From: an uncultured delta proteobacterium
GTDB lineage: Bacteria; Desulfobacterota; WTBG01; CAIYCZ01; CAIRTM01
DNA: 36,634 nucleotides
Assembly: GCA_963804955.1 (NCBI GenBank)
Contig: CAWDSQ010000021.1
Span: 1 to 36,634 of the forward strand
Reading direction: 5' to 3'
Shown here one piece after another: positions 22,508-36,634 of this stretch (position 1 is the first letter of the stretch; each line of letters starts with the position of its first letter). A program made the translations under genes and the position numbers. Under the pieces are notes generated by a model. That model was not told where the DNA came from. It saw only the letters and a list, made by a program, of their open reading frames with translations, and did not search any database.

Positions 22508-22784
22508 GTGGTCCGCTCACGAATGGATTAATAAAACAGAGCTATGTAAAATGTCTTCTCAAAGTTTTGTCTTATTGTCAAACTAAATGGCGGCCATGAC
22601 GGCACTTGACCCGGTTCGGCATATAGATTACGTATAGGCTGTGCACCTCCGATTTATATGGCAGGCACAGCCCATTCTAGGTGCTTGACCGTTAACGTAT
22701 ATATATGGTATAGTTAGTGAACTATTGACGTTACGGCCCTTGTTAATCTGTATCCAGGCTGCATTTAATACGGAAAAAACTTCT

Positions 22785-23925
22785 ATGGATTTTGAACTGA
22801 CGCGACAGCAGAAGCTTAGCCGCAAGATCGCCCGCGAATTTGCCGAGCGCGAGCTTGCCCCGTATGCCCAGCAGTGGGATGAGGAGATGGCCTTCCCTGC
22901 CGAGGCCATCAAAAAGATGGGCCCCCTGGGGTTCATGGGCATCAGCATACCAAAAGAGTATGAAGGTGCGGGTCTTGACGGCATCAGCTACTGCCTCATC
23001 ATCGAAGAACTGGCCCGCTGCTGCGCCTCCACCGCTATTATCGTCTCCGTGCACAATTCCGTGGGCGCCTATCCCATCTATGCTCTTGGCAATGAACAGC
23101 CAAAAACAGAAATACCTGCCCGACCTCTGCTCGGGCCGCAAGCTCGGGGCATTTGCCCTGACCGAGCCCAATGCAGGCTCAGACCCGGCCTCCCTTGAAA
23201 CCATGGCCGAGCCGCAAGGTGACCATTTCCTTCTAAACGGCGTGAAGACCTTCATCACCAGCGGCGGCACCTGCGATACCGTCATCGTCATGGCCGCCAC
23301 CAGACGGGAAAAAAAAAGCCGCGGCATTACGGCTTTTATTGTTGAAAAGGGAACCCCCGGCTTCAGTGTGGGCGCAAAGGAAAACAAGCTCGGCATACGG
23401 GCATCCGACACCTGCGAGCTTATCTTTGAAAACTGCCGCGTGCCCGCGGAAAACGTGCTGGGCGAAGTAGGCGCTGGACTGACTGCGGCACTTGGCGCCC
23501 TCACCTTCGGCCGCGTAGGCGTAGGTGCGCAGGCCCTGGGCGTTGCGCGCTGCGCCATGGAAGAATGCATTCGCTACAGCCAGGAGCGTAAGCAGTTCGG
23601 CAGGCCCATAGCAAGTTTTCAGGCCCTGCAGTGGATGATTGCCGACATGGCCACGCAGATCGAAGCTAGCCGCATGCTCATCTGCAAGGCGGCCTGGCTG
23701 AAAGACAACGGCAAGCCCTTTGCCACCGAGGCTTCCATGGCAAAGCTGTATGCATCAGAAGTGGCTATGCATGCGGCCACCAAGGCCATACAGATACACG
23801 GCGGCTACGGCTGCATGAAAGACTATAAGGTGGAGCGCTGCTTCCGCGATGCCAAGGTGATTGAAATTTATGAAGGCACCTCGGAAATCCAGCGCCTGAT
23901 TATTGCGAGAAATACGATAAAATAA
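22785..23925 (+). CDS. Acyl-CoA (butyryl-CoA-type) dehydrogenase (one frameshift near 23100)
   Basis: GAFALTEPNAGSD, NGVKTFIT, KLGIRASDT, RKQFG, QIHGGYG, IYEGTSEIQR. Confidence 0.93.
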
Positions 23926-23945
23926 CCGGCAAGCATTTGCGTAAA

Positions 23946-24019
23946 CAGGGCGGGTTAAACCCACCATTTATGCAAGCCAATGAATTCGGTGGGTTCCACT
24001 TCGTTGCACCGCACCCTAC
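23946..24019. repeat. REP doublet (REPIN-like), same family as 33633-33704
   Basis: agggcgggttaaacccacc ... ggtgggttccacttcgttgcaccgcaccctac. Confidence 0.7.
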
Positions 24020-24037
24020 GGAATGCCAAAGATAAAA

Positions 24038-24836
24038 ATGAGCGCCCTAAATATCATCGTCACCATCAAGCAGGTCCCCGACACCGCCGAGGTGCGCATC
24101 GACCCCAAAACCAATTCGCTCATGCGCGAAGGCGTGCCGAGCATCATCAATCCCGAAGACCGCAATGCCCTGGAAGCAGCGCTTGTGCTGCGTGAGGCCC
24201 ACGGCGGCACGGTCACGGCACTTTCCATGGGGCCGCCGCAGGCGCGTGATGCTTTGGAAGAAGCACTCTGCATGGGCGCGGACCGGGCGATACTTTTATC
24301 CGACCGGGCCTTTGCCGGCGCCGATACCCTCATCACCGCGTTCACGCTCTCGCGGGCAATCATGAAAATCGGCAAAGTATGATCTTATACTCGCCGGCCG
24401 CCAGGCCATCGACGGCGACACAGCCCAGGTCGGGCCCCAGATTGCCGGTTTTCTTGACCTGCCGCAGGTCACCTACGCGGAAGGCCTTGAGATTCAAAAG
24501 GGTGGGACGCTTGTCGTGCAGCGCGGACTAGAGGACAGCACGCAGTGGGTTCAGGTCAAACTGCCGGCTCTTGTCACCGTCACGGGCCGCATCAATCACC
24601 CTCGCTACCCGAGCCTGTACCATGTTGCAGACTCCTGCGATGATGCAAAGATAAAAACCTGGACAGCCAAAGACCTGCAATTGCCGCAGGCCATGCTCGG
24701 CCTTGGCGCCTCGCCTACAACGGTGAAAAAGATTTTCGAGCCCGACCGCAAGATGAAGGGCGAAATGATTCCGGGCGATGAACGGGAGATGGCGACGGCG
24801 CTGATTGGAAAACTGAAAGAGATGCATGTAATCTAG
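24038..24836 (+). CDS. etfB: Electron transfer flavoprotein beta subunit (one frameshift near 24375)
   Basis: KQVPDT, INPEDRNALE, LSMGPPQA, SDRAFAGADT; after removing one A, YDLILAGRQAIDGDTAQVGPQ. Confidence 0.93.
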
Positions 24837-24864
24837 TAGGGGCGGTTACGCGAACCGCCCCTAC
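24836..24864. repeat. GTAG-type REP palindrome
   Basis: gtaggggcggtt-acgcg-aaccgcccctac, perfect 12-bp arms, overlapping the etfB TAG stop. Confidence 0.8.
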
Positions 24865-24892
24865 GGCAGAACTCACATAAAGACCAAAACCC

Positions 24893-26075
24893 ATGATCCA
24901 ACTTGTTCCTGAAAAATGTATCGGCTGCAAACTGTGCGTGAAGGCATGCCTGTTCGGCGGGATTGCTGTTGACGGCAAAGTGCCGCGGCTCACTGATTCG
25001 TGCACGGGCTGCGGCGCCTGCGTCGATGTCTGCCGCGTGGAGGCCATTATCGCCAGCGGTGAAAAAACCGGCCCGGTATGCGATCTTGCCGCCTATAAAG
25101 GGGTCTGGGTGTTTGCCGAGCAGCATGCAGGCAGACTGAACAGCGTGACGCTTGAGTTGCTTGGGAAAGCACGCGAGCTTGCCGATGCCAGAGGCGCTGA
25201 AGTGACAGCCGTGCTGCTGGGCAGCGGCGTTGCGGCACTGGATGGCGAACTTTTCCGGCATGGCGCCGACCGCGTGCTGCTGGCCGAAGCCCCGTTTCTT
25301 GCAGACTACCGCACCGCGCCCTATGAGCGCATCGTGGCCCACCTCATAGTGGAGCATAAGCCCGAAATCATCCTTATCGGCGCAACAACCACGGGCCGCG
25401 ACCTTGCACCCCGGCTTGCCAACCGCCTTCGAACGGGCCTTACCGCCGACTGCACCGGTCTTGAGATAGGCCCGGACGGAGGGCTTGCTGCAGACGCGCC
25501 CGGCTTTCGGCGGCAATATCATGGCAACCATTGCTACGCCCAATCACCGGCCGCAAATGGCAACTGTGCGGCCCGGCGTGATGCAGGCAAAAACATGTGA
25601 CGGCAGAACAGGCACAACCACAGCTATAGCGGTTTCGGAAGAGCCCGGCGATAGCCTCGTTCAAATCCTTAAGGCTCTTGCGCGAGAGAAAAGCGCCGTA
25701 TCTCTTGAAAAGGCCGAAGTGATTGTTTCGGGCGGCCGCGGCATGGGCGACCCGAAAAACTTCAAGCTTCTGGCAGAGCTGGCGGGGCTGCTGTCGGGCG
25801 AGGTGGGCGCATCGCGCGCAGCAGTGGATCTTGGCTGGATGCCGCATGACCATCAGGTGGGCCAGACCGGCAAAACCGTCAAGCCCCGCATCTACATCGC
25901 CTGCGGTATATCAGGCGCTGTTCAGCACTTGGCAGGAATGCAATCTTCTGATATCATCATCGCCATCAACCGCGATCCGGCGGCCCCGATTTTTCAGGCT
26001 GCCACCTTCGGCATGGTGGGAGATGCTTTAAAAATAATTCCGGAACTTATCAGCCAACTCAATGTTCATAGTTAA
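24893..26075 (+). CDS. etfA: Electron transfer flavoprotein alpha subunit with N-terminal 2x[4Fe-4S] ferredoxin domain (one frameshift near 25485)
   Basis: CIGCKLCVKAC and CTGCGACVDVC; GLTADCT, TRPAFGGN, SGGRG, QVGQTGK, GISGAVQH. Confidence 0.93.
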
Positions 26076-26089
26076 AGAAGGAGGTCGCC

Positions 26090-26728
26090 ATGAAAAAACA
26101 GTTTTCAGTTCTGTGTCTGATGCTTGCACTTGGGGTATTTTTCCTCTCTGCCTCACCCGGCTATTGCTACCGCGAAAAGCCTGATGCCGTTATCGAAGAC
26201 AGCTGCACCGCGGGCGTCAAAAAAATTCTTGTTACCTATGACACAAAGCATGGTGCAACATCAGTCGTTGCCAAAAAGGTTTTTGACACGCTCTGCGACA
26301 ATGCCTCTGTTGATCTGGTTTTTGTGGAAAATCTTGATCCTGCAGAAATACCTAATTATGACGCCATCGTGATCGGCAGCCCCATTTATATCGGCAAATG
26401 GCTGCCCGGCATAAAAAAGCTTTTGAAAAGGCACCATGAAGCTATCGAGACGCTCCCCTTTGCTTTTTTCATAACCTGTACCTATATCGGTGAAGACACC
26501 CCCGAGCGGCAGGCGTATGCGAAAGAAACGTATGTTGAAAAAAATCTGGCAAAATATACCGATGTGCAGCCGCTGGATATAGGCATATTGGGAGGACAAT
26601 TTACATTTGACGAACTGTACCCCGTAGAGCTTTTTCTTATGAAGCTTGCAAAATTTGAAGAAGGCGATTTTATCGATAATGCTACAATCGAGACCTGGGC
26701 AAAGGGGGCAGCTGAGCAGCTGCTTTAG
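26090..26728 (+). CDS. Flavodoxin-fold (HemG/Flavodoxin_5-like) protein with signal-peptide-like N-terminus
   Basis: ILVTYDTKHGAT, YDAIVIGSPIY, GDF....I..WA; MKKQ + hydrophobic stretch; AGGAGG RBS. Confidence 0.8.
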   Translation: MKKQFSVLCLMLALGVFFLSASPGYCYREKPDAVIEDSCTAGVKKILVTYDTKHGATSVVAKKVFDTLCDNASVDLVFVENLDPAEIPNYDAIVIGSPIYIGKWLPGIKKLLKRHHEAIETLPFAFFITCTYIGEDTPERQAYAKETYVEKNLAKYTDVQPLDIGILGGQFTFDELYPVELFLMKLAKFEEGDFIDNATIETWAKGAAEQLL

Positions 26729-26741
26729 AACTTTAGATGGT

Positions 26742-26790
26742 AAAAAATAAAAAAGGCCCGGCAGCAGTTGCCGGGCCTTTTTTATTTTTT
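26742..26790. terminator. Bidirectional rho-independent terminator between convergent operons
   Basis: aaaaaataaaaaaggcccggca-gcagt-tgccgggccttttttatttttt, perfect inverted repeat. Confidence 0.9.
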
Positions 26791-26846: not shown

Positions 26847-26891
26847 TGTCATCTCGACCAAAGGGAAAAATCTTTAAAATTTCTCGCTGCG
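26847..26891. repeat. Short copy of the GTCATCTCGAC repeat overlapping the acyltransferase 3' end
   Basis: tgtcatctcgaccaaagggaaaaatct...aaatttctcgctgcg aligns with 11667-11736. Confidence 0.7.
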
Positions 26892-27665
26892 TTTTGTACT
26901 ACGGCCTGCTCCGTCTCAAAAAAAGCCCTCGCTTGCTTTATTAAATCCGCATTTGAAAAATCATCACTTTCATAATCCGGCTGCAGTCTGCCTGCAAGGC
27001 TTATTCTGATTTCAACGGTTTCTCCTGTGTTGAAAAAAAAACTGTCGGGCGGATATACCCTGTGCGTATTTTCGATGCGCAGCACGCTGATAGGAGCGCG
27101 GCAGAGCCTGGCAATGGTAAATGCCCCTTTTTCAAATGGTCCTATGGCGCCGGTTCGGCTGCGGGTGCCTTCAGGAAATATAAAAAGATTACCGCCCGCG
27201 GCAAGATAAGAACGCATGGCCTTGACCTGCTCCATGAGGTCGGGAGCATCCGGGTTTTGCGCAAGGGCAGGAGCGAGATAGCCTGCGGACTTCAGCACCC
27301 AGCCAAAGATCGGCACTTTAAAAAAGTCGCTTCTAACGATGGTCTTATGCTGCCTGAAAAGCGATACAAGCAGTATGGGATCAAGAAATGACAGGTGATT
27401 GGCAATAACAACCGATGAGCGAACAGCGTACACTTCCGGCGCGATGCTGATTGTCACCTGCGGCATGAGCAGCTTCAGATACGCAAAAAAGCAGCGGTAG
27501 AAAATGCAGTTGAGGTTCTGGAATGCAGCCTCGCGGTCGGTCGCAAACAGGGCTGCGGCGCAATAGGCAGGAAAAAAGAAAAAAATAAATGCTGCGAAGT
27601 AGTATGCCCACAGCAGCAGCGTAATGATAACTATCTGCCGCCGGCCTGAAAGTTTTAGTGAGCAT
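26849..27665 (-). CDS. Lysophospholipid (PlsC-family) acyltransferase with N-terminal membrane segment (frameshift near 27632)
   Basis: NHLSFLDP (HX4D), FPEGTRS, FEKGAF; in-frame upstream hydrophobic VIITLLLWAYYFAAFIFFFFPAY. Confidence 0.88.
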
Positions 27666-27677
27666 GGGGCTGCCTGC

Positions 27678-28910
27678 TTAAGGCTTTTTGAGGAGTATAT
27701 TTGTGTTCACGCCGCCGAAGGCAAAATTCTGAATGGAGGCGATGCTCATTTTCTGCTCCCGCAGCTTCATCACGTGGTTGATCATGGCGCAGCGCTCATC
27801 GACCGTTTCAAGATTGAGCGTGGGTGCTATGCAGCCTTCGGCCATAAGGTGCAGCGTGATGATGGTTTCGATGACACCGCAGGTGGCCATGGTATGGCCC
27901 ATATATCCCTTAAAGCCCGTTACCAGAGGCCGGTTGCCGTACACATCATAGATCGCCTGCGCCTCGATGATATCGCCCATCTTGGTGCCGGTGGCATGGG
28001 CGCTCACAAAATCGACATCACCTGCGTTGAGGGAGGCATCTTTCAGCCCGAGCTGAATAGTCTGCGTGATGCCTGCCAGATTGGGCAGAATCAGGTCGCC
28101 GCCATTATTGTTGCAGGCGAAGCCTATAACCTCGCCCAGTATGGTTGCCCCGCGTTTTTTTGCGCATTCGTATTCCTCAAGCAGCACAGCACCCGCGCCC
28201 TCGCCCACCACAAGGCCGTCGCGAGCTTCGTCAAAGGGCCGCGGCGTGCGGCTGGGCGAATCGTTGAAGGCTGTGGAGCAGGCAAGCAAATTATCGAAAA
28301 CTGCCACCGTCGTCGTATCGTATTCATCGGCGCCACCGCAGATCATGGCGTCCTGCATGCCAAACTTGATCGATTCATAGCCGTAACCGATAGACTGGCT
28401 GCTCGTGGTGCAGGCCGTGGAGGATGAAATAACGCGGCCTGTAATGCCGAACATCTTGGTAATATTGACCGCCGTTGTGTGCACCATAGAGCGCAGATAA
28501 TCTACTGCGCCGATATTGGCGAATTTATCTGATTCCTTGCTGAAAAATATCCGGTAGATATCGCGCTGCACCGTGGGGCTGCCATGCGTGGAGCCGAAGG
28601 CTACCCCCAGCCTGCCCGAGGTTATAAACTCCTGCGTCAGACCGGATGCCTCAAGCACCTCTTTTGCAACCTGGCAGGCATAATAGGCAACCGGGCCCAT
28701 GGTTTTACGGAACTGACGGGAAAAGCCGTACTCCACCGGATAATCGACAGTGCCGTACACCTTTGAATGAATATATTTGGTGAGCAGGCCGTCATCGCGC
28801 AGGGACTTAACTCCGGAGATGCCGCTGGTGAGGCTGTGCATCAGCTCATCTTTGGTGCGGCCGATGGGCGTAATGGCGGAGCAGGCAGTTATGACGACGC
28901 GTCGTGGCAT
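27678..28910 (-). CDS. Beta-ketoacyl-ACP synthase (FabF/FabB-type KS 3)
   Basis: STACTTS, SAHATGT, KGYMGHT, NFAFGGVN; Cys-His-His triad intact. Confidence 0.92.
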   Translation of the reverse strand: MPRRVVITACSAITPIGRTKDELMHSLTSGISGVKSLRDDGLLTKYIHSKVYGTVDYPVEYGFSRQFRKTMGPVAYYACQVAKEVLEASGLTQEFITSGRLGVAFGSTHGSPTVQRDIYRIFFSKESDKFANIGAVDYLRSMVHTTAVNITKMFGITGRVISSSTACTTSSQSIGYGYESIKFGMQDAMICGGADEYDTTTVAVFDNLLACSTAFNDSPSRTPRPFDEARDGLVVGEGAGAVLLEEYECAKKRGATILGEVIGFACNNNGGDLILPNLAGITQTIQLGLKDASLNAGDVDFVSAHATGTKMGDIIEAQAIYDVYGNRPLVTGFKGYMGHTMATCGVIETIITLHLMAEGCIAPTLNLETVDERCAMINHVMKLREQKMSIASIQNFAFGGVNTNILLKKP

Positions 28911-28987
28911 AGTGTTTTCGGCTCGTTTATTGGTTTTCAATTTTTTTCAATATTCAGACGTGCAGGCTGTGTCACATATCAAATTCT

Positions 28988-29072
28988 TGTCATTGCGACC
29001 GCAGGGAGAAACCATAGCGTCATTGCTTAACTCGCAGTGCTACAGGATCTCTACCTGCGGATCGAGATGTCA
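28988..29072. repeat. Degenerate GTCAT-family repeat
   Basis: tgtcattgcgaccgcagggagaaac ... gatctctacctgcggatcgagatgtca. Confidence 0.6.
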
Positions 29073-29087
29073 GCAAGGAGACATGCT

Positions 29088-29345
29088 CTAACCTTCCCGT
29101 GCTTTCATGATATTCTCTATATAATCGCACACCTGATTGATTGTGCGGATATTGAGCGACTGCTTCTTCTCTTCCTGCGTAAGCTCGGTTTGCAGCATCT
29201 TTTCTATCTGGATTAAAAGCTCGATGCCGTCGATGCTGTCAAACCCGTACTTTTCCCGCAGGTCATCGTCAGGGTCGGGGTTCTCCATCTCGAATTCGCG
29301 ACTGCAGATCGCAATAATTTCAGAACGCAGTTCTTCTCGTGTCAT
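29088..29345 (-). CDS. Acyl carrier protein 2
   Basis: 85 aa, acidic, GFDSID phosphopantetheine serine motif. Confidence 0.9.
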   Translation of the reverse strand: MTREELRSEIIAICSREFEMENPDPDDDLREKYGFDSIDGIELLIQIEKMLQTELTQEEKKQSLNIRTINQVCDYIENIMKAREG

Positions 29346-29361
29346 ATCACCATATCCTTAT

Positions 29362-29654
29362 TTCACCGCCCGCTTCGCTCGAGGCGCAGAGAACGCTGAG
29401 AATGTCCGTTTTATCCTTTCTATTGAGAGGATAGAAAGGATAAAGGCTCGCCTTATTTAAAAATGCTGGTGTTTATTTTGACTTCAGAAGCCATGTTAAT
29501 GGTAATGGCTTCCGAAGAAGGCACCTGAAACACTGCGTGTTTTTGATTCCGCCCTTCCAGAGCGAAATCAAGCCACCAGCTTGTGCTGGTGATGGTTGGC
29601 TACGCCATCTTCGGCGAAAAATAAAATCTTCTACCTCTGTGACTCTGTGGTGAA
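29362..29654. repeat. Element bounded by inverted CACCGC/CAGAG-type ends with an internal hairpin
   Basis: ttcaccgc...cgcagagaacgctgag at left, ctctgtgactctgtggtgaa at right; internal tttatcctttctat / atagaaaggataaa stem (about 29410-29444). Confidence 0.5.
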
Positions 29655-29668
29655 TCCGCCTCTTTGCC

Positions 29669-30148
29669 TTATTTCGGAAACATTCCCCAGAGCCGAACCG
29701 TGCCGTCGTCCACTGCCACCACCTGGCCTGTGGCATTCAATGCGCAGTGCTGTGTGAAACCAGTGCATACAATGCTTCCGGTTTCGCCATGCGTGATACT
29801 ATAATCAAAGCGCACTTTCACCCGCTCGATCTCCGCCGGCCGGGTGTACACCCACATGGGATCATCATAATACAGGGGCTCATAAAATTTTATGCCAAGG
29901 TCGACGATGGGATACACATACCCTTTTGCCTCTATTTCTTTGTACGGATAGTCGGCCTCGCGCATGAGCGAGGTACGGCCGAATTCAAAATAGCGCAGAT
30001 AATTGGCATGGTACACAACGCTTGACCTGTCCGTATCGGCATAGAGCGTACGCTGCCAGCAGCGGTGCCAGACAAGGCCGGTCTCCAAGTCGCGCTGATA
30101 GATGCCGGAATCTGCAAGCGCTTCAGGTCTGAATGGTTTTGGTTTCAT
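29669..30148 (-). CDS. Hotdog-fold acyl-CoA/ACP thioesterase (YbgC/4HBT family)
   Basis: YADTDRSSVVYHANYLRYFEFGR motif. Confidence 0.88.
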   Translation of the reverse strand: MKPKPFRPEALADSGIYQRDLETGLVWHRCWQRTLYADTDRSSVVYHANYLRYFEFGRTSLMREADYPYKEIEAKGYVYPIVDLGIKFYEPLYYDDPMWVYTRPAEIERVKVRFDYSITHGETGSIVCTGFTQHCALNATGQVVAVDDGTVRLWGMFPK

Positions 30149-30149
30149 A

Positions 30150-31415
30150 TTACATGCCCCTGAATACGATGCAGCAGTTCGTGCCGCCAAAGCCGAATGC
30201 GTTTGAGAGCGCTATTTCATAGTTCTGTTTTCGTGCAGCGTTGGGCACGAAGTCAAGGCCGTCATACTGGGGATCATGCAGATAATTTATTGTCGGCAGA
30301 AGCATCCCCTGCCGCATGGCTTCGATGGTCAGCGCCGCTTCAATGGCAGCCGTCGCGCCAAGGCTGTGGCCGAGCTGCGATTTGTTTGAAGATATGGGGA
30401 TATGTGCAAGCCCCTTCCCGAACACCGTTCGCAAGCACTCAATCTCAGCTGCGTCACCCGTGGGCGTTGATGTGCCATGGGCATTGATATACTGGACATC
30501 CGCCGCTGTCAAGCCGGCATCGTCAATGGCATCGACAATCGCCCGGATCACGGTCTCTTTGTTTGGCCGGATGAAATGGTGGGCATCCGATGTCCAGCCC
30601 ACGCCAAGAACCTCGGCCTTTGAGTTAAGGCCATAGGCCGCAAGCATTTCCTCTGCCGCAAGAACCAGCACGCCGCCGCCCTCGGAAAGCACAAACCCCT
30701 TGCTGTCGATGCTGAAAGGCCGCGAGGCCTGACCGGGGTCGGCAAAAGCCCGGTCACGCTCATTTATTTTTATAGTGGCGTTCATGTTGGCAAAGCCCTG
30801 TATGATCTCGGGCATGAGCGGCATCTCCACCCCGCCTGCCAGCACAAAGTCGCAGTCGCCATCGCGGATCATACGCGCCCCCAGGCCGATGGCATGGTTG
30901 CCCGAGGCACATGCCCCCTGCGGCGAAAATATGGGGCCGGTGAATCCAAGCAGCATCCCCGCCTTGCCCGCAGGCACATTGGCGCAAAGGTTTGGCAGCA
31001 GATAGGGGCTCACCTTCAGGGGGCCCCGCTCTTTCAGGTTATCCACAGCCACGCGCATGGCATCAGAGCCGTTGATGGCTGATCCGATGAGGCATGCCGT
31101 GCGCGGGCCGGTATCTTTGTTCATCTCAAGTCCGGCGCTTGCAAGCGCCTCCTTGCATACGGCCATAGTGAGCATCACAAACGCGGCATTCCAATTATAG
31201 ACTTCCTTTTTGGTGGTAAAATCAAAACCTTCCGGGTTCCAGTCCGGTATCTCGCCCACCACATCGGCAGGGGTCTTTACCTCGCAGCGGCTGACTTTAC
31301 GGAACCCGGCCTCGCCGTGCACCGCGCGCTGCCAGGTCCGGGCAAAGTCCAGCCCCAGCGGCGTCGCCGCTCCGTAGCCGATCACAAACACGCGTCTGTT
31401 CTTTGGTGCTTTCAT
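30150..31415 (-). CDS. Beta-ketoacyl-ACP synthase (FabF-type KS 2)
   Basis: GACASG, NAHGTST, KSQLGHS, NAFGFGGTN. Confidence 0.92.
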   Translation of the reverse strand: MKAPKNRRVFVIGYGAATPLGLDFARTWQRAVHGEAGFRKVSRCEVKTPADVVGEIPDWNPEGFDFTTKKEVYNWNAAFVMLTMAVCKEALASAGLEMNKDTGPRTACLIGSAINGSDAMRVAVDNLKERGPLKVSPYLLPNLCANVPAGKAGMLLGFTGPIFSPQGACASGNHAIGLGARMIRDGDCDFVLAGGVEMPLMPEIIQGFANMNATIKINERDRAFADPGQASRPFSIDSKGFVLSEGGGVLVLAAEEMLAAYGLNSKAEVLGVGWTSDAHHFIRPNKETVIRAIVDAIDDAGLTAADVQYINAHGTSTPTGDAAEIECLRTVFGKGLAHIPISSNKSQLGHSLGATAAIEAALTIEAMRQGMLLPTINYLHDPQYDGLDFVPNAARKQNYEIALSNAFGFGGTNCCIVFRGM

Positions 31416-31552
31416 GAAATCTTATTTATACCCATGTTCTAAATCCAAAATATATTCAATGTAGGCTGGGCAGAGTCCGCCAACCCGGATGAGGTTATTG
31501 CCTGTGTAAAAAGCTTTTTGGCCTTCAGCAGCCTTATAACATCGTGCCGGTT

Positions 31553-32239
31553 TTACTCTTTCAACAGCATGCACTGGTATTTTGTTGTTATTATAGGGAC
31601 CTCTTTCTTGCCGGCAAGAAATTCATCAATAGCTTTTTTTACCCCCGGACAGCCCCTCCACTCATAATCATCAAACACCATAACTCCGCCGGATACCATC
31701 CTCGGATAGAAAAATTCCATGCAGTTCTTTACGGATTGGTAAATATCCACATCAACATAGACAAAGCAAAATTTTTTATCTTTGACCGTCTCTGCCGTTT
31801 CAGGAAAAAATCCAGGGTGAAACACAACATTGCTGCAGTCGCTGAGAAAACTTTTTACTGCTTCTATGGAAGTATCCAAAAAATCACCTTTGCTGTGAAC
31901 ATCTATTCCGCACACCACATCAGGCATCCCTGCAAAGGTATCAAAAATATGGACCTTTTTTTGGGGACAGGTTTTAGAAATTATTTTCGCTGTCCCGCCT
32001 TTGTAGACACCGACCTCCGCCATGTCTCCATCTTTGCCAGCGGCGTATTTGGCCATTTGATACAGCATAAAACACCGGTCCTGTGAGACCAAAGTGCGAG
32101 TTTCCATTTCTTTGAATACCTGCTGAAAAAAACCACTGTTGCTCCACGGTTCAGGCAACATCCGATCATATGTTTTTACCTGCAAACCAGCAAATTGAAA
32201 AATCTTTTTTACCGCCTTCTCAATTTTTGAATGGTTCAT
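31553..32239 (-). CDS. TylF/MycF/NovP-family SAM-dependent O-methyltransferase
   Basis: GDMAEVGVYKGG, FDTFAGMP, GFFPET, VDVDIY, GGVMVFDDY, GVKKAIDEF. Confidence 0.88.
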   Translation of the reverse strand: MNHSKIEKAVKKIFQFAGLQVKTYDRMLPEPWSNSGFFQQVFKEMETRTLVSQDRCFMLYQMAKYAAGKDGDMAEVGVYKGGTAKIISKTCPQKKVHIFDTFAGMPDVVCGIDVHSKGDFLDTSIEAVKSFLSDCSNVVFHPGFFPETAETVKDKKFCFVYVDVDIYQSVKNCMEFFYPRMVSGGVMVFDDYEWRGCPGVKKAIDEFLAGKKEVPIITTKYQCMLLKE

Positions 32240-32333
32240 TGCTTTCAACCTTTTGATTCAAGAGTTTGCAGCATGCGCATCGCGCACCATTTTGCTGCAG
32301 CAGATTTATCGTTATTGCATTCACAGCATCATA

Positions 32334-33587
32334 CTATGCCACGCGCCGCAGGACAATACAGGAATTGCATCCGCCGAAGCCGAAGGCGTTTTTCAACACA
32401 TGCTCCTGCTGTAGTTTCCGAGCGCCTTCGGCTACGCAGTCAATTTCAATTTCCGGATCGGGAGTGTAATTGATGGTGGGCAGCAGCGTGTCGGCCAGCA
32501 TGCCCTCCATGGCAAATATTGTTTCAATGGCGCTTGAAGCGCCCATGGCATGGCCGGTCTGCGACTTGTTGGCGCTCACCGGCGGTATACGGCCGCCAAA
32601 TATCTCTTTAAGTGCATCGGCCTCGACTTTATCACCGACCTTTGTCGATGTGCCGTGGGCATTGACTGCGGCAATGTCAGCAGGGGCAAGGCCTGCATGC
32701 TCGATGCTCTGGCTGATGCAGCGCTTAACGGTTTCAAAATTCGGTGCAACGAAATGGTGGGCATCGGAGGTCATGGCCCAGCCTGCCATCTCGATTTTAG
32801 GCATTAGGCCGTGAGCTTGGGCAAAAGCTTTTGTGGCGATAATCATGCAGCCCGCACCTTCGGCAACCACAAACCCCCGGCGGTTTATTGAAAACGGACG
32901 GCTTGCCTTTTCCGGCGGCTCATGTTCCTGCCCCTCTTTGGGATGGTAGGCGCCGTTCATGGTGGCAAACCCGCCGACGATCGGCTCGACAAGGGCAAAA
33001 TCAACAGCGCCGCAGATGACCACATCGGCCATGCCCTGCTGCAGCATCATGGCGCCTGCTATCATGGAGGTTGCGCCCGTGGCGCAGGCGGTAATGGTTG
33101 CCATGATGGGGCCGGTGGCGCCGGTCATGATGGATACTTTGCCGCCGACCATATTGATGCATGAGTTGGGATTGGTGAAGGGATGGGGCAGTTTATTCTT
33201 ATCATTTAAAAGCCTGTCGGCGCTGATGACCGCGTCGAGGCCGCCGACAGCTGAGCTGAACGTGATGCCCACGCGGGGAGCAAGGTCAGGCGAAATAACG
33301 ATGCCGCTTTTTTCAAGGGCCCGGTGTACGGTGAGAAGGCCGTATTTAAAAATGGGTGAGGTAAAGAGCGCCATGTCGCGCGAGGTGAGATAGGGATAGG
33401 GCGTCAGATCAATATCCGCCACCTGCCCTGCGATGCGAACGGGAAAATTTTCGCGAAGGGGAAAGCGCGTGAGCGGCCCGATGCCGCTTTCGCCAGCGCA
33501 GGCCCGCTGCCACTGGCCGGCAAGATCAGTACCGAGGGCTGATACGGCATCGTAGCCGAGTATGACCGGGAGGGAATCATTGCGCAT
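32334..33587 (-). CDS. Beta-ketoacyl-ACP synthase (FabF-type KS 1)
   Basis: TACATG, NAHGTST, KSQTGHA, NAFGFGGCN. Confidence 0.92.
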   Translation of the reverse strand: MRNDSLPVILGYDAVSALGTDLAGQWQRACAGESGIGPLTRFPLRENFPVRIAGQVADIDLTPYPYLTSRDMALFTSPIFKYGLLTVHRALEKSGIVISPDLAPRVGITFSSAVGGLDAVISADRLLNDKNKLPHPFTNPNSCINMVGGKVSIMTGATGPIMATITACATGATSMIAGAMMLQQGMADVVICGAVDFALVEPIVGGFATMNGAYHPKEGQEHEPPEKASRPFSINRRGFVVAEGAGCMIIATKAFAQAHGLMPKIEMAGWAMTSDAHHFVAPNFETVKRCISQSIEHAGLAPADIAAVNAHGTSTKVGDKVEADALKEIFGGRIPPVSANKSQTGHAMGASSAIETIFAMEGMLADTLLPTINYTPDPEIEIDCVAEGARKLQQEHVLKNAFGFGGCNSCIVLRRVA

Positions 33588-33632
33588 ACAGGAACCGCAA
33601 AATCATGGATTCACCTCTTTGTGTTCTGTCCC

Positions 33633-33704
33633 GCAGGGTGGGTGAACCCCACCACTATTGCGAATGACAAAAAACGGTGGGTTCCGCTTCGCTGCACCCA
33701 CCCT
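33633..33704. repeat. REP doublet (REPIN-like), same family as 23946-24019
   Basis: gcagggtgggtgaaccccacc ... ggtgggttccgcttcgctgcacccaccct. Confidence 0.72.
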
Positions 33705-33755
33705 TCTCCCAGCTACAGCCTACAGGCTCTGATAGCCTAACAGCCTGTTTGCCGC

Positions 33756-34756
33756 TCACCAGGGAATAAAGCGGTAGAGCTTGGCAAACATCTCGTACAC
33801 CTCTATCCAGCTCTTAAGATCATCGGCTGTTTTGAGATGCTCTTTCTTATTGACCATGACCCAGCTCATATGCGCCGCGCCGTCTTTGCAGGTGGAGCAG
33901 TCGCGCGTGGCAGAGGTGCAGCAACGGTGCATGGTCTGCAAGATCAGCGGCCCAGCGGATGAAGCGAATAAGGCGCTTGGGCTGAGGGTTGCGCGTGTCC
34001 ATGGGCTCGGTCACCGAGGGGCATTCAAGCCACCCGAAACGGCTGCCCATCATCATGCCCGTGGTGATGATTTCGTGATAGTATTTGCAGGAGATAAGCG
34101 TTTCCGGGTAGGCATCAAGAAGGGCATCCATCTCGGCGCGCACATCTTTGAGCTGCTGCTCATTCCACGAGAACCCGTCGACCTCTTCGTCATTTGACAG
34201 AAGTTGCAGATGCACTTTCAGCCCGACGTCTTGTATCTTCTTGACCATGCGGTCGATGCGGCCGAGTTGTTTCGGGGTGATGGTGTAGAGATAGTAGGTA
34301 TAGGGGTCGCCGGCATAGTTACGGCTTGAAACGGCAAAGGTATCTTTGCCGCGCAGCAGCTTTTCATCCTCCTCATCGCCCCAGAGCGATATGCCAACCA
34401 TCAGATCGGGAAAACGGTCGCGCGGCACCTTGATCTGGCCATTGCTGGCACAGAAGGTGGGCAGGCGCTTGTAGAAGGCGTCTATCCGGTCAAGACAGAG
34501 CGTGGGCTCGCCGCCGATGAGAATGGCAAGGTTGACGCCGCGCTCTTTTTCCCGCTCCACAAAGGCTTCCCAGGCGGCAATGCTCATCTCCTCGGGCGCG
34601 GCCTGATCTTCATCGGATGAAAAAAAGAAGCAGCCCTTGCACCGCAGGTTGCAGCGGTTTGTAACATCGTAGATGGAGCTTCGGATATTGAGGCTTGCTA
34701 TGCGCTTGTAGCGCGCATACCAGTCCTTGATCGAGCATTGAGCTTATGAGTTGCAT
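33756..34756 (-). CDS. Radical SAM enzyme B (frameshifts near 34727 and 33941)
   Basis: Reconstructed MQLISSMLD/DWYARYKRIASLNIRSSIYDVTNRCNLRCKGCFFF (CX3CX2C, missed by the ORF track), IGGEPTL, ASNG, and C-terminal CP...CCTSATRDCSTCK. Confidence 0.88.
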
Positions 34757-34855
34757 AATTATAATCTGTAGCTGTGCGCATAGACTGTAGGAGTGTGCAT
34801 TCAGCCGCGAAACCATCGCGCTTAATTGCGCTCTAAAACAAATTGAAAGTGCGCC

Positions 34856-35942
34856 CTACGCACATCTGCAAACACTCACACTCTGCGGCGGCTCAACAGG
34901 CCCGCGGCAGAGGTTCTCTCCTTTTTCATACCCCGTGACCCAGACGGCAAGATAGGTATCCACATAATCAAGCCATGCTTTGAAGGTATCAGGATCGGTT
35001 GCATGGCGGTAGAGCTTTGAGGTTACCACGGCGCTGCCTGCGGCATAATGCCTGCAATCGGCGCAGTCCGTATCAGGCACGCAGCAGGACGCGCTGCGGT
35101 CCCAGGTCAGATCCGAGCGGTACTGCCGGAATGAACGCCCCAGGCCGATATCGGCTGACTGGTTCATGCGCGGATACGGGCAGCCGTAGAGCCTGTGCAG
35201 CCCCAGCCGGTGCGAGTGGGCAACAGCGCTGTAGGGCGAAAAAAACATCTGCCGCGGATATGCGGCCAGCAGCTCAAGCATGGCCCTTCGCATCCGGGCA
35301 AGCGACGTCTTGCGTGTGCCGCAATGCTCCGGTGTAGCCGACCGGCGCAGAGAACACATTGAAGGTGACCTTGCAGTCATGTGCTGCAAGAAGGTCGATC
35401 ACCGGGCCTGCTTCATCGATATTGTCATGCGTAAAGGTATACACAAACACGGTCCGGCTGTCGCCCCGGTAATTATCCAGCTGCTTCTCAAGCATATCCT
35501 TCTGTTTGCGCACCCGCAGGCTTGTGGCGTCATTTCCCCAGACCGACACGTGAATCTTGTGCCCCACCGATTGTTCGATACGCTTCACCCCGTTGGTGGC
35601 AATGCAGCCAAGCGGAATCTCGTCATAACAGGCCTGCAGAAGCTCGGGAACAAGGGCAGGCTCGGCACCGGCCAGCACCACGAAGGTGATGCCGCGTGCC
35701 TTCTCGTCGCGCATAAGCTTGCGCCAGGCTTGAGGGTCGCCCTTGTCGGCTGTAAACTGCTTGTCGCCGGCATAGTAGTAGCAACCGTCGCACCGGATAT
35801 TGCAACGGTGGGTCATGTCATAGGTTGATTCGCGCAGGAAGAAATACGTGCGCACCCGCTCCCAGCGTTCGCGCACGGCAGGCTCTGCAAGCAGGTCGGC
35901 AAATCTGTATTTCGGGGTCGAGGAGGGCTGTTCTGCGCTCAT
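34856..35942 (-). CDS. Radical SAM enzyme A (frameshift near 35310)
   Basis: YDMTHRCNIRCDGCYYY (CX3CX2C), AGAEPAL, ATNG, and C-terminal CP...CCVPDTDCADCR. Confidence 0.88.
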
Positions 35943-35957
35943 AATGCGATGGGCGTA

Positions 35958-36230
35958 TCAGGCTTTTGCCTGAAGCCGCTCCTGAATATAGCCCGCTATA
36001 AGGCGTATGGCGCGCAGTTTGGGATAGTCGTCCTCATCGATCTTGACGGCGTACTCATCCTGCAGCACCAGCACGATGGTGGCAAGGTCCATGCTGTCGA
36101 TACCGATTTCATCCACAAGATCAAGATCAGGATCAAACGTTTCCGCCGTGATATCCTGCAGCTTCAGTTCGCTGATTATGATTTGCGCGACACGCAGCTG
36201 AAGCTCTTTTTCATTAATACCAGCAGACAT
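35958..36230 (-). CDS. Acyl carrier protein 1
   Basis: 90 aa, acidic, GIDSMDL motif; GGAGG RBS. Confidence 0.9.
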   Translation of the reverse strand: MSAGINEKELQLRVAQIIISELKLQDITAETFDPDLDLVDEIGIDSMDLATIVLVLQDEYAVKIDEDDYPKLRAIRLIAGYIQERLQAKA

Positions 36231-36243
36231 TCAACCTCCTTCA

Positions 36244-36633
36244 TTAACAGACAGTTGTTTTATTATCAGAGTATCCGGCAAGCGGCTCAAGATGTATGAT
36301 GCCGGTGCAGGCCGCCTCGCCGGCCAGCAGAATCGTGAAAGCATATAAGACCCCGCTTTCCTTCTGTTCGCGCTTGAGCGCCAGCGTAAAGGGCTCATCA
36401 GGCCGGACCGGCTTTTTAAACCGTACCCTTTTTACAGCTTTCAGCCGTATGCGATGCCCCCCGCCCGCCTCTTTTTCCCTCGCAGCGTCAAAGGCCATGG
36501 CAATCATGGCGATGCCGGGCAGTATCGGCTGGCCGGGGAAGTGCCCGTCAAACCATGGGGACCCGGCAGGCGCTGCCGCGCGGGCTTCCAGGCTGTCTTC
36601 ATGTATACTGCCAATTTCAAGTTTTTGCCAGAC
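36244..36633 (-). CDS. Hotdog-fold 3-hydroxyacyl-ACP dehydratase (FabZ/ApeI-like), 5' end outside the window
   Basis: Frame is open to the window edge: ...SPWFDGHFPGQPILPGIAMI...VRFKKPVRP. Confidence 0.8.
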   Translation of the reverse strand, partial: VWQKLEIGSIHEDSLEARAAAPAGSPWFDGHFPGQPILPGIAMIAMAFDAAREKEAGGGHRIRLKAVKRVRFKKPVRPDEPFTLALKREQKESGVLYAFTILLAGEAACTGIIHLEPLAGYSDNKTTVC

Positions 36634-36634
36634 T

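Follow-up and report, generated by a model that had tools for sequence, protein, structure and literature searches.

The window analyzed here is the whole contig CAWDSQ010000021.1 (36,634 nucleotides; contig C21 of genome G000, GenBank assembly GCA_963804955.1) of an uncultured delta proteobacterium, and its right-hand part carries a block of acyl-chain genes, read on the minus strand. Two neighboring genes of this block code for radical S-adenosylmethionine (SAM) enzymes, called below rSAM A and rSAM B. They belong to a conserved, uncharacterised enzyme set within a kind of cluster that is known and still unsolved. The conserved core consists of a dehydratase (DH1), an acyl carrier protein (ACP1), rSAM A, rSAM B, two ketosynthases (KS1 and KS2), a thioesterase and a second dehydratase (DH2). 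From the gene content we tentatively propose, as the likeliest of several readings, that the radical SAM pair oxidatively tailors a chain bound to ACP1 and destined for a membrane lipid. It is likewise quite possible, short of being probable, that the module is self-contained for acyl-chain assembly and tailoring, inside a larger flexirubin/aryl-polyene-like cluster of anaerobes of the "ladderane-type" type II fatty acid synthase (FAS II).

Conservation of the core and its companion genes

The scan of species genomes with rSAM A gave at least 592 pattern matches; 588 were confirmed, and the best 80 loci, 68–100% identical to rSAM A, were retained. The intact orthologues from genome G004 (rSAM A, 354 aa; rSAM B, 332 aa) were used as queries, and the denominators given below are the loci with enough flanking sequence. 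The 80 loci come from records titled as Desulfobacterota groups, Spirochaetota, Myxococcota and others, and the cultured strain Desulfobacter vibrioformis DSM 8776 is among the module carriers. ACP1 was present in 72 of the 73 loci whose upstream flank measured 400 bp or more, with a median identity of 68%, and rSAM B in 68/69, lying directly downstream of rSAM A in 64. The remaining core genes recurred in a similar way: DH1 in 64/69 loci, KS1 in 56/60, KS2 in 44/50, the thioesterase in 41/47 and DH2, a polyketide synthase (PKS)-type double hot-dog dehydratase found on contig C5 in G000, in 42/45.

Sampling of 400 other genomes of the host phylum gave 31 with a match. Thirty had an rSAM A orthologue (65–84% identity), and every one of them had a second match of about 30% identity, which was confirmed as rSAM B in G018, G052, G233 and G360; the remaining genome, G073, has only a distant orphan homologue. 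Where the module is scattered, rSAM B and the tandem ketosynthase pair were retained elsewhere in five of five genomes, and ACP1 lay directly upstream of rSAM A even in the scattered loci L063, L077, L082 and L086. The first-pass annotation had tied the rSAM pair to ACP1, KS1, KS2 and the thioesterase, and the 80 loci, the 400-genome sample and the five genomes with scattered loci all bear this out. Because the carrier genomes are related by descent, these counts overstate independence. The distribution of the module is patchy, since an rSAM A orthologue occurs in only 4 of 40 near relatives. In G360 we also saw a second locus (L102:8769-10040), with ACP1 and then rSAM B alone, adjoining an aryl-polyene-type sub-module.

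The same annotation had treated all eleven genes of the block as one pathway unit. This could not be maintained, because one gene, a TylF-family O-methyltransferase, is a lineage-specific insert and three others (ACP2, the ketosynthase KS3 and a PlsC-type acyltransferase) are accessory. TylF was absent from 52/52 related loci, and its GC content is 0.415 versus 0.55–0.59 for the three ketosynthase genes; on these grounds it is probably not a pathway member. It is also present in near relatives (contigs from public sequencing runs); at the insertion site G002 and G004 have other inserts, and G003 and G018 have none. Between KS1 and KS2, related genomes carry different small inserted genes. KS3 and PlsC were found in 11/45 loci each and ACP2 in 12/45, and KS3 travels with the other two. 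The best PDB match of KS3 was 7F27, which is AbApeR according to PMC8358021.

It had further been suggested that PlsC loads the product. Its occurrence in 11 of 45 loci rules it out as the general dedicated acyltransferase, and PlsY is the commoner companion of the core: of the 38 loci that span 19 kb or more, 26 have PlsY, 8 have PlsC and 28 have either. PlsY follows DH2 immediately in 17/44 loci. A Dak2-DegV fusion is present in G000, G018, G052 and 4/80 loci.

The radical SAM pair and the ketosynthases

What kind of enzymes are rSAM A and rSAM B? They are 30% identical to each other and have in common the motifs CxxxCxGC and G(A/G)EP and five C-terminal cysteines ending in CC-x5/6-C-x2-C. 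The radical SAM and C-terminal cysteine motifs were present in 75/75 full-length orthologues of rSAM A and 63/63 of rSAM B. Both proteins have the CxxxCxxC motif and partial TIM-barrel fold of the radical SAM superfamily, the top Foldseek and VIA-align matches were all radical SAM enzymes, and the precomputed Pfam annotation of 120 homologues consisted of PF04055 only.

The AlphaFold model of rSAM A has a pLDDT of 79.6, with low confidence at residues 267–289. Its matches to SkfB (6EFN; Z 14.3, rmsd 4.3, 219 residues aligned), BlsE (7VOB; Z 14.1, rmsd 3.8, 244 aligned) and anSME (4K36; Z 12.9, rmsd 4.2, 244 aligned) are weak and at the level of family. With these SPASM/twitch enzymes, as with SuiB (5V1Q) and Tes/GDGT-MAS (7TOM), the pair shares the partial barrel, CxxxCxxC and a Cys-rich C-terminus. 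It differs from them in identity (at most about 20%), in the CxxxCxGC core, in a C-terminal helical extension, in the occurrence of paired paralogues beside an ACP gene, and in the tail, which is CC-x5/6-C-x2-C and not the canonical SPASM Cx2Cx5Cx3C. None of the NCBIfam radical SAM families passed (best 28–33 bits against cut-offs of 180–650), and Pfam SPASM (PF13186) matched neither of the two pieces of rSAM A, nor the middle piece of rSAM B that was scanned. The PDB sequence search with rSAM A gave a best E of 9e-5, and the ESM Atlas search returned nothing but unnamed radical SAM clusters. On these comparisons of sequence and predicted fold, the pair belongs to no curated family and is without a close relative of known structure. 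Literature searches, whose coverage mostly did not extend to subscription papers, turned up no study of the pair, no product and no characterised enzyme; the earlier statement that the block cannot be assigned to a characterised pathway stands.

Neither rSAM A nor rSAM B has a B12 domain, and from what is established about the radical SAM classes methylation by this pair is therefore unlikely.

The catalytic triad of KS1 is complete in every row tallied from 59 orthologues and that of KS2 in 51/51, and the phosphopantetheine serine of ACP1 is normal in 60/61. Since both triads are intact, KS1 and KS2 as a pair of ketosynthase and chain-length factor (KS-CLF) were ruled out. Prediction of an A-B heterodimer from paired 59-row alignments scored 0.00 against a mark of 0.32; this gave no answer and was not used as evidence.

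Proposed route from ACP1 to a membrane lipid

In the route we propose, KS1 and KS2 would extend the chain on ACP1 and the dehydratases would dehydrate it. Each radical SAM enzyme would cleave SAM and take hydrogen from the ACP1-bound chain, and an electron would pass to a single putative auxiliary Fe-S cluster, for which the conserved cysteines of the C-terminus would be the ligands. The net reaction would be a non-methylating, O2-independent oxidation. The outcome may be a new C=C bond or a new C-C ring or cross-link, which we hold about equally likely, with decarboxylation and sulfur insertion less so. The thioesterase would then free the acid, the Dak2-DegV fusion would activate it as a FakA/FakB-like kinase, and PlsY (or PlsC) would put the acyl group on glycerol-3-phosphate; the end product would be a membrane lipid of an unusual kind. 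TylF would be a passenger.

A more specific version, in which rSAM A and rSAM B form C-C rings or cross-links on the ACP-tethered chain at separate elongation stages with KS1 and KS2, appears unlikely to us. If true, these would be the first non-B12 radical SAM ring-formers acting on a tethered fatty chain, about 7% of the genomes of the phylum would code for a membrane lipid of an undescribed class, and the stepwise ring formation suggested for ladderanes could be studied in a culturable model. A cultured carrier of the module exists, so enzyme assays and lipidomics are feasible, and the product could act as a biomarker for anoxic sediments.

The wider cluster and its flexirubin-like genes

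Upstream of the window, contig C35 carries genes for a B12 radical SAM enzyme, a methyltransferase, a U32-like protein, a membrane protein and a further acyl carrier protein (ACP3), and beyond them a KS-CLF fusion, a polysaccharide deacetylase and a lipoprotein. The B12 enzyme is 90% identical to the copy at C4:3741-5105, which scored 406.5 with TIGR04072 (cut-off 360). In G003, G004 and G018 the PlsC gene is followed by DH2, a phytoene-dehydrogenase-like protein, a B12 radical SAM enzyme and an AMP ligase. G003 and G018 then add an ApeP-like dehydratase, FabG, a LolA-like protein and a lipoprotein, and G018 alone adds a B12 radical SAM enzyme, an ammonia-lyase, a thioesterase, a Dak2-DegV fusion, a family 2 glycosyltransferase (GT2), an MMPL exporter and an LpxL-like acyltransferase. 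These downstream genes lie on contigs C1 and C5 in G000. The labels ApeI, ApeP and CLF follow Pfam/NCBIfam names and general usage.

This gene content could point to another product, again made by modifying a chain on ACP1, namely the acceptor half of a flexirubin-like pigment ester, or part of an aryl-polyene lipid of the outer membrane, rather than a phospholipid chain. We consider this somewhat improbable, as also the connected idea that the module replaces the DarA/DarB dialkylresorcinol module. Homologues on three contigs cover the aryl-polyene/flexirubin set of KS-CLF, ApeR-like ketosynthase, ApeI/P, ketoreductase, starter ligase and export. The cluster of G000/G018 includes the ammonia-lyase, AMP ligase, ApeP-like dehydratase and FabG, the LolA-like protein, GT2, MMPL, LpxL-like protein and deacetylase, the KS-CLF and a PRK09184-type ACP above its cut-off; KS3 is ApeR-like, and the flexirubin gene set listed in PMC3992019 matches the wider cluster. 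Against this reading, an ammonia-lyase occurs within 10 kb in 2/80 loci, a fused KS-CLF in 31/80 and the ApeR-like sub-module in 11/45, and PlsY follows the core in many loci. The flexirubin-specific models failed with the G018 proteins (FlxB 303.6 against 340; LolA2_flexi 71.1 against 125). DarA and DarB were not among the recurring neighbors of the loci, in which alone they were sought, no genome-wide search having been made.

Compared with aryl-polyene and flexirubin clusters (ApeO/C, ApeR, ApeI/P; FlxA-Y, DarA/B), likeness thus extends to KS3, dehydratases, KS-CLF, FabG, ligase, ammonia-lyase, LolA, GT2, exporter, deacetylase and acyltransferases. The present module adds its own ACP, two FabF-like ketosynthases and two radical SAM enzymes, and no radical SAM enzyme figures in the available parts of the accounts of the aryl-polyene (PMC8358021) and flexirubin (PMC3992019) gene sets. 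The fused KS-CLF of L021 (3140-5320) had 9S5H chain B as its best PDB match (206 bits), above FabF and ApeO.

Distant homologues and the substrate of the pair

A profile search gave 118 representatives at E <= 1e-30. In a quick tree rSAM A groups with a large set of single-copy homologues, and rSAM B and several proteobacterial types lie outside. Some distant homologues adjoin thioester enzymes, and we counted this in favor of an acyl-ACP substrate. In P0231 (724 aa) a member of this radical SAM family is fused with a TubC-type docking domain and a thioesterase. Plasmid homologues were found in 16 records and four contexts. On a Methylomagnum plasmid the order is ACP-TauD-rSAM-NRPS (nonribosomal peptide synthetase), and on Alteromonas, Burkholderia and Tistrella plasmids a PaaA/C-like diiron protein and a hot-dog protein lie beside the radical SAM homologue. 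This trio, in which the radical SAM homologue is of the B side and the hot-dog protein is a thioesterase/MaoC protein, was seen at L097:19180-21535, L098:19210-21607 and L100:9319-15960, and the Burkholderia trio adjoins an acyl-homoserine lactone synthase, a halogenase and carrier proteins. In aerobes the PaaA/C-like diiron enzyme may take the place of one of the two radical SAM enzymes. A match on the Alteromonas plasmid suggested a link with bleomycin-type radical SAM enzymes; this was rejected, as the gene is outside any NRPS/PKS cluster and nothing relevant was found in the literature.

Several results weigh against the membrane-lipid route. One distant rSAM A-like clade, sister to rSAM A in the quick tree, was followed in metagenomes at 55 loci, of which 35 were examined and 20 short or partial ones excluded. 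No ACP or ketosynthase gene lay within 4.5 kb in these 35 loci (blastp of all open reading frames against references), and a carrier or ketosynthase Pfam domain was found in 0/89 chosen neighbors of the clade. MBOAT proteins were neighbors in 9 of the loci and TPR proteins in 8; sulfotransferases, surface proteins and autoinducer synthases were also seen. The homologue of G073 is an orphan. Enzymes with the nearest solved folds have peptides or nucleosides as substrates. The core has no ketoreductase, FabG being in another part of the cluster. PlsY is missing from 12/38 long loci, is not beside the cluster in G000 and may be a housekeeping neighbor, and the 80 loci are the closest matches and share descent. 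Membership of the family therefore does not by itself imply an acyl-ACP substrate, and the expectation that homologues are generally linked to ACP and ketosynthase genes failed for the distant single-copy ones, most of which have no such neighbors. The ACP link belongs to the A/B pair and not to the whole family.

The composition of these neighborhoods suggests that the distant single-copy clade has a separate cell-surface role. An MBOAT gene and an unnamed partner stand beside the homologue in L108, L109, L110, L120, L130, L133, L136, L137 and L141. A sulfotransferase and a large surface protein, in autotransporter-like operons, were seen in L113, L115, L116 and L139.

Could rSAM A and rSAM B themselves act on the ACP1 protein or another protein, like the SPASM/twitch maturases, or on a sugar or head group of a glycolipid? 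The best structural matches are peptide maturases and nucleoside/sugar enzymes, the distant rSAM A-like clade lies beside MBOAT, sulfotransferase, TPR, glycosyltransferase and surface-protein genes, and the cluster carries a polysaccharide deacetylase and GT2. The pair itself, however, sits between ACP1 and two ketosynthases, outside the glycosyl/export part; moreover, ACP1 stays upstream of rSAM A in scattered loci and keeps its phosphopantetheine serine. We therefore regard such a substrate as doubtful, and more so than the pigment ester.

Comparison with the clusters of Kuenenia and Desulfotalea

Judging from its gene content, the wider cluster, which includes flexirubin-like genes, falls into the Kuenenia/Desulfotalea type known since 2009, when FAS II clusters resembling those of Kuenenia and containing radical SAM genes were described in D. 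psychrophila, Geobacter and Pelobacter (PMC2649909). The clusters of Kuenenia stuttgartiensis (kuste3335-3352, kuste3603-3608) and Desulfotalea psychrophila resemble ours in FabF paralogues, several ACPs, a TIGR04072 enzyme, a phytoene-dehydrogenase-like flavoprotein, an acyl-CoA ligase, a polysaccharide deacetylase, an MMPL-like protein, a methyltransferase and the unknown product (PMC2649909, PMC4790861). The extended FAS II set of this Rattray type (TIGR04072, phytoene-dehydrogenase-like protein, acyl-CoA ligase, deacetylase, MMPL-like protein and several FabF) is contiguous in G018 and mostly so in G003; in G000 it is split between C35/C21, C1 and C5. The claim of an undescribed pathway thus holds for the pair, which is uncharacterised, and fails for the cluster: with the 2009 description and TIGR04072 above its cut-off, its kind is known though unsolved. 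The G000 copy adds little beyond the passenger methyltransferase.

Four "SAM radical" genes of Kuenenia are listed in Table S2 of PMC4790861: Kuste3342 is B12-type, kuste2803 and kuste3608 are described as B12-dependent, and the fourth is Kuste3343. By eye, from the sequences of that paper, Kuste3343 is a classical SPASM protein and Kuste3342 resembles the C4 B12 enzyme; rSAM A and rSAM B are unlike all four (by eye and from the published descriptions, Tables S2 and S6). Both KS1 and KS2 have the full triad, unlike the anammox pair FabF2/FabFmut with its inactive partner (10.64898/2026.05.19.726425), and a separate fused KS-CLF lies upstream; an anammox gene set is given in PMC9821293. A SPASM radical SAM gene resembling Kuste3343 by eye was seen near the module in L077:16328-17392, L082:16331-17401 and L028; two of these loci are from Desulfobacter. 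The available part of a review of lipid radical SAM enzymes names none like rSAM A/B (PMC13459092), and expressed "ladderane" clusters of Desulfobacterota are reported with function unknown (PMC9902471).

It is very improbable that the pair forms the cyclobutane ladder of ladderanes as shared enzymes with anammox bacteria: the TIGR04072 enzyme and the synteny with the Kuenenia clusters (PMC2649909) favor it, but the Kuenenia radical SAM genes are B12-type or classical SPASM, in L077 and L082 the gene that resembles Kuste3343 is distinct from the pair, and ladderanes were not found in D. psychrophila (PMC2649909).

Architecture of the block

The Pfam scan, with three-frame translation of the broken genes, confirmed the eleven co-oriented genes in the order that had been given for them (Table 1), and also the 15-bp gap between the ACP1 stop (35958) and the rSAM A ATG (35942).

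Table 1. Features of the operon in the window
Feature	Coordinates	Strand	Remarks
DH1, FabA/ApeI-like single hot-dog dehydratase, core	36244..36634	-	PF07977 and PF22818 above cut-off
ACP1, dedicated acyl carrier protein, core	35958..36230	-	PF00550; GIDSMD phosphopantetheine site
rSAM A, non-B12 radical SAM	34856..35942	-	CxxxCxGC; C-terminal C...CC-x5-C-x2-C; frameshift ~35307-35311; natural end probably near 34877
rSAM B, paralogue of rSAM A	33756..34756	-	CxxxCxGC; ECPS...CC-x6-C-x2-C; frameshifts ~34728-34730 and ~33939-33941
KS1, FabF-like ketosynthase, core	32334..33587	-	Cys-His-His triad
TylF-family O-methyltransferase	31553..32248	-	PF05711; low-GC insert
KS2, FabF-like ketosynthase, core	30150..31415	-	Cys-His-His triad
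YbgC/FadM-family (4HBT) thioesterase, core	29669..30148	-	TIGR00051, 81.3 bits (cut-off 68.7)
ACP2, accessory aryl-polyene-type sub-module	29088..29345	-	PF00550
KS3, ApeR-like ketosynthase, accessory sub-module	27678..28910	-	Best PDB match 7F27
PlsC-type acyltransferase, accessory sub-module	26849..27665	-	PF01553; frameshift ~27632
Bidirectional terminator-like hairpin	26744..26788	.	Between the operon and a convergent flavodoxin-domain gene

Both ends of the block agree with the earlier description, which had it ending at a terminator and running past the right edge. The hairpin at 26744-26788 has 20 pairs with A/T tracts on both sides. Terminator-like sites are abundant in the region (21 versus 12.1 +/- 3.9 in shuffles), so that this hairpin stands out by nothing except its size and where it lies. 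At the right edge DH1 is truncated by the end of C21; its first codons are on C35, the end of which continues the DH1 reading frame of the window. The upstream operon has a second copy, at strain level, on contig C4, which spans this junction (96% identical to C21 over 2.4 kb and 90–95% to C35), and C35 and C21 are directly contiguous. The search of public sequencing runs listed no RNA dataset as carrying the module.

The frameshifts noted earlier are present as single extra bases relative to relatives, one in rSAM A, two in rSAM B and one in PlsC. The bases at 33941, 34726 and 34730 are missing from near-relative contigs in public sequencing runs, and the same single-base breakage hits many other genes of the G000 assembly; the frameshifts are thus most likely assembly errors. 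That the G000 copy is decaying and non-functional, as four frameshifts and the lack of DH2 and the downstream genes after PlsC (where G003, G004 and G018 have them) might indicate, is hardly credible, because such insertions are frequent in the G000 assembly, near relatives have no extra bases at three sites, and the genes not attached after PlsC are carried by C1 and C5.

The convergent operon at 22725-26728 codes for an acyl-CoA dehydrogenase, electron transfer flavoprotein-like subunits and a flavodoxin-domain protein, the only one of these that was Pfam-scanned. It is frameshifted too and gives no sign of being part of the lipid cluster. Within the block, the intergenic repeats at 33636-33710 and 29400-29600 have 8 and 37 further blastn matches in the genome and look by eye like repetitive extragenic palindromic (REP) elements.

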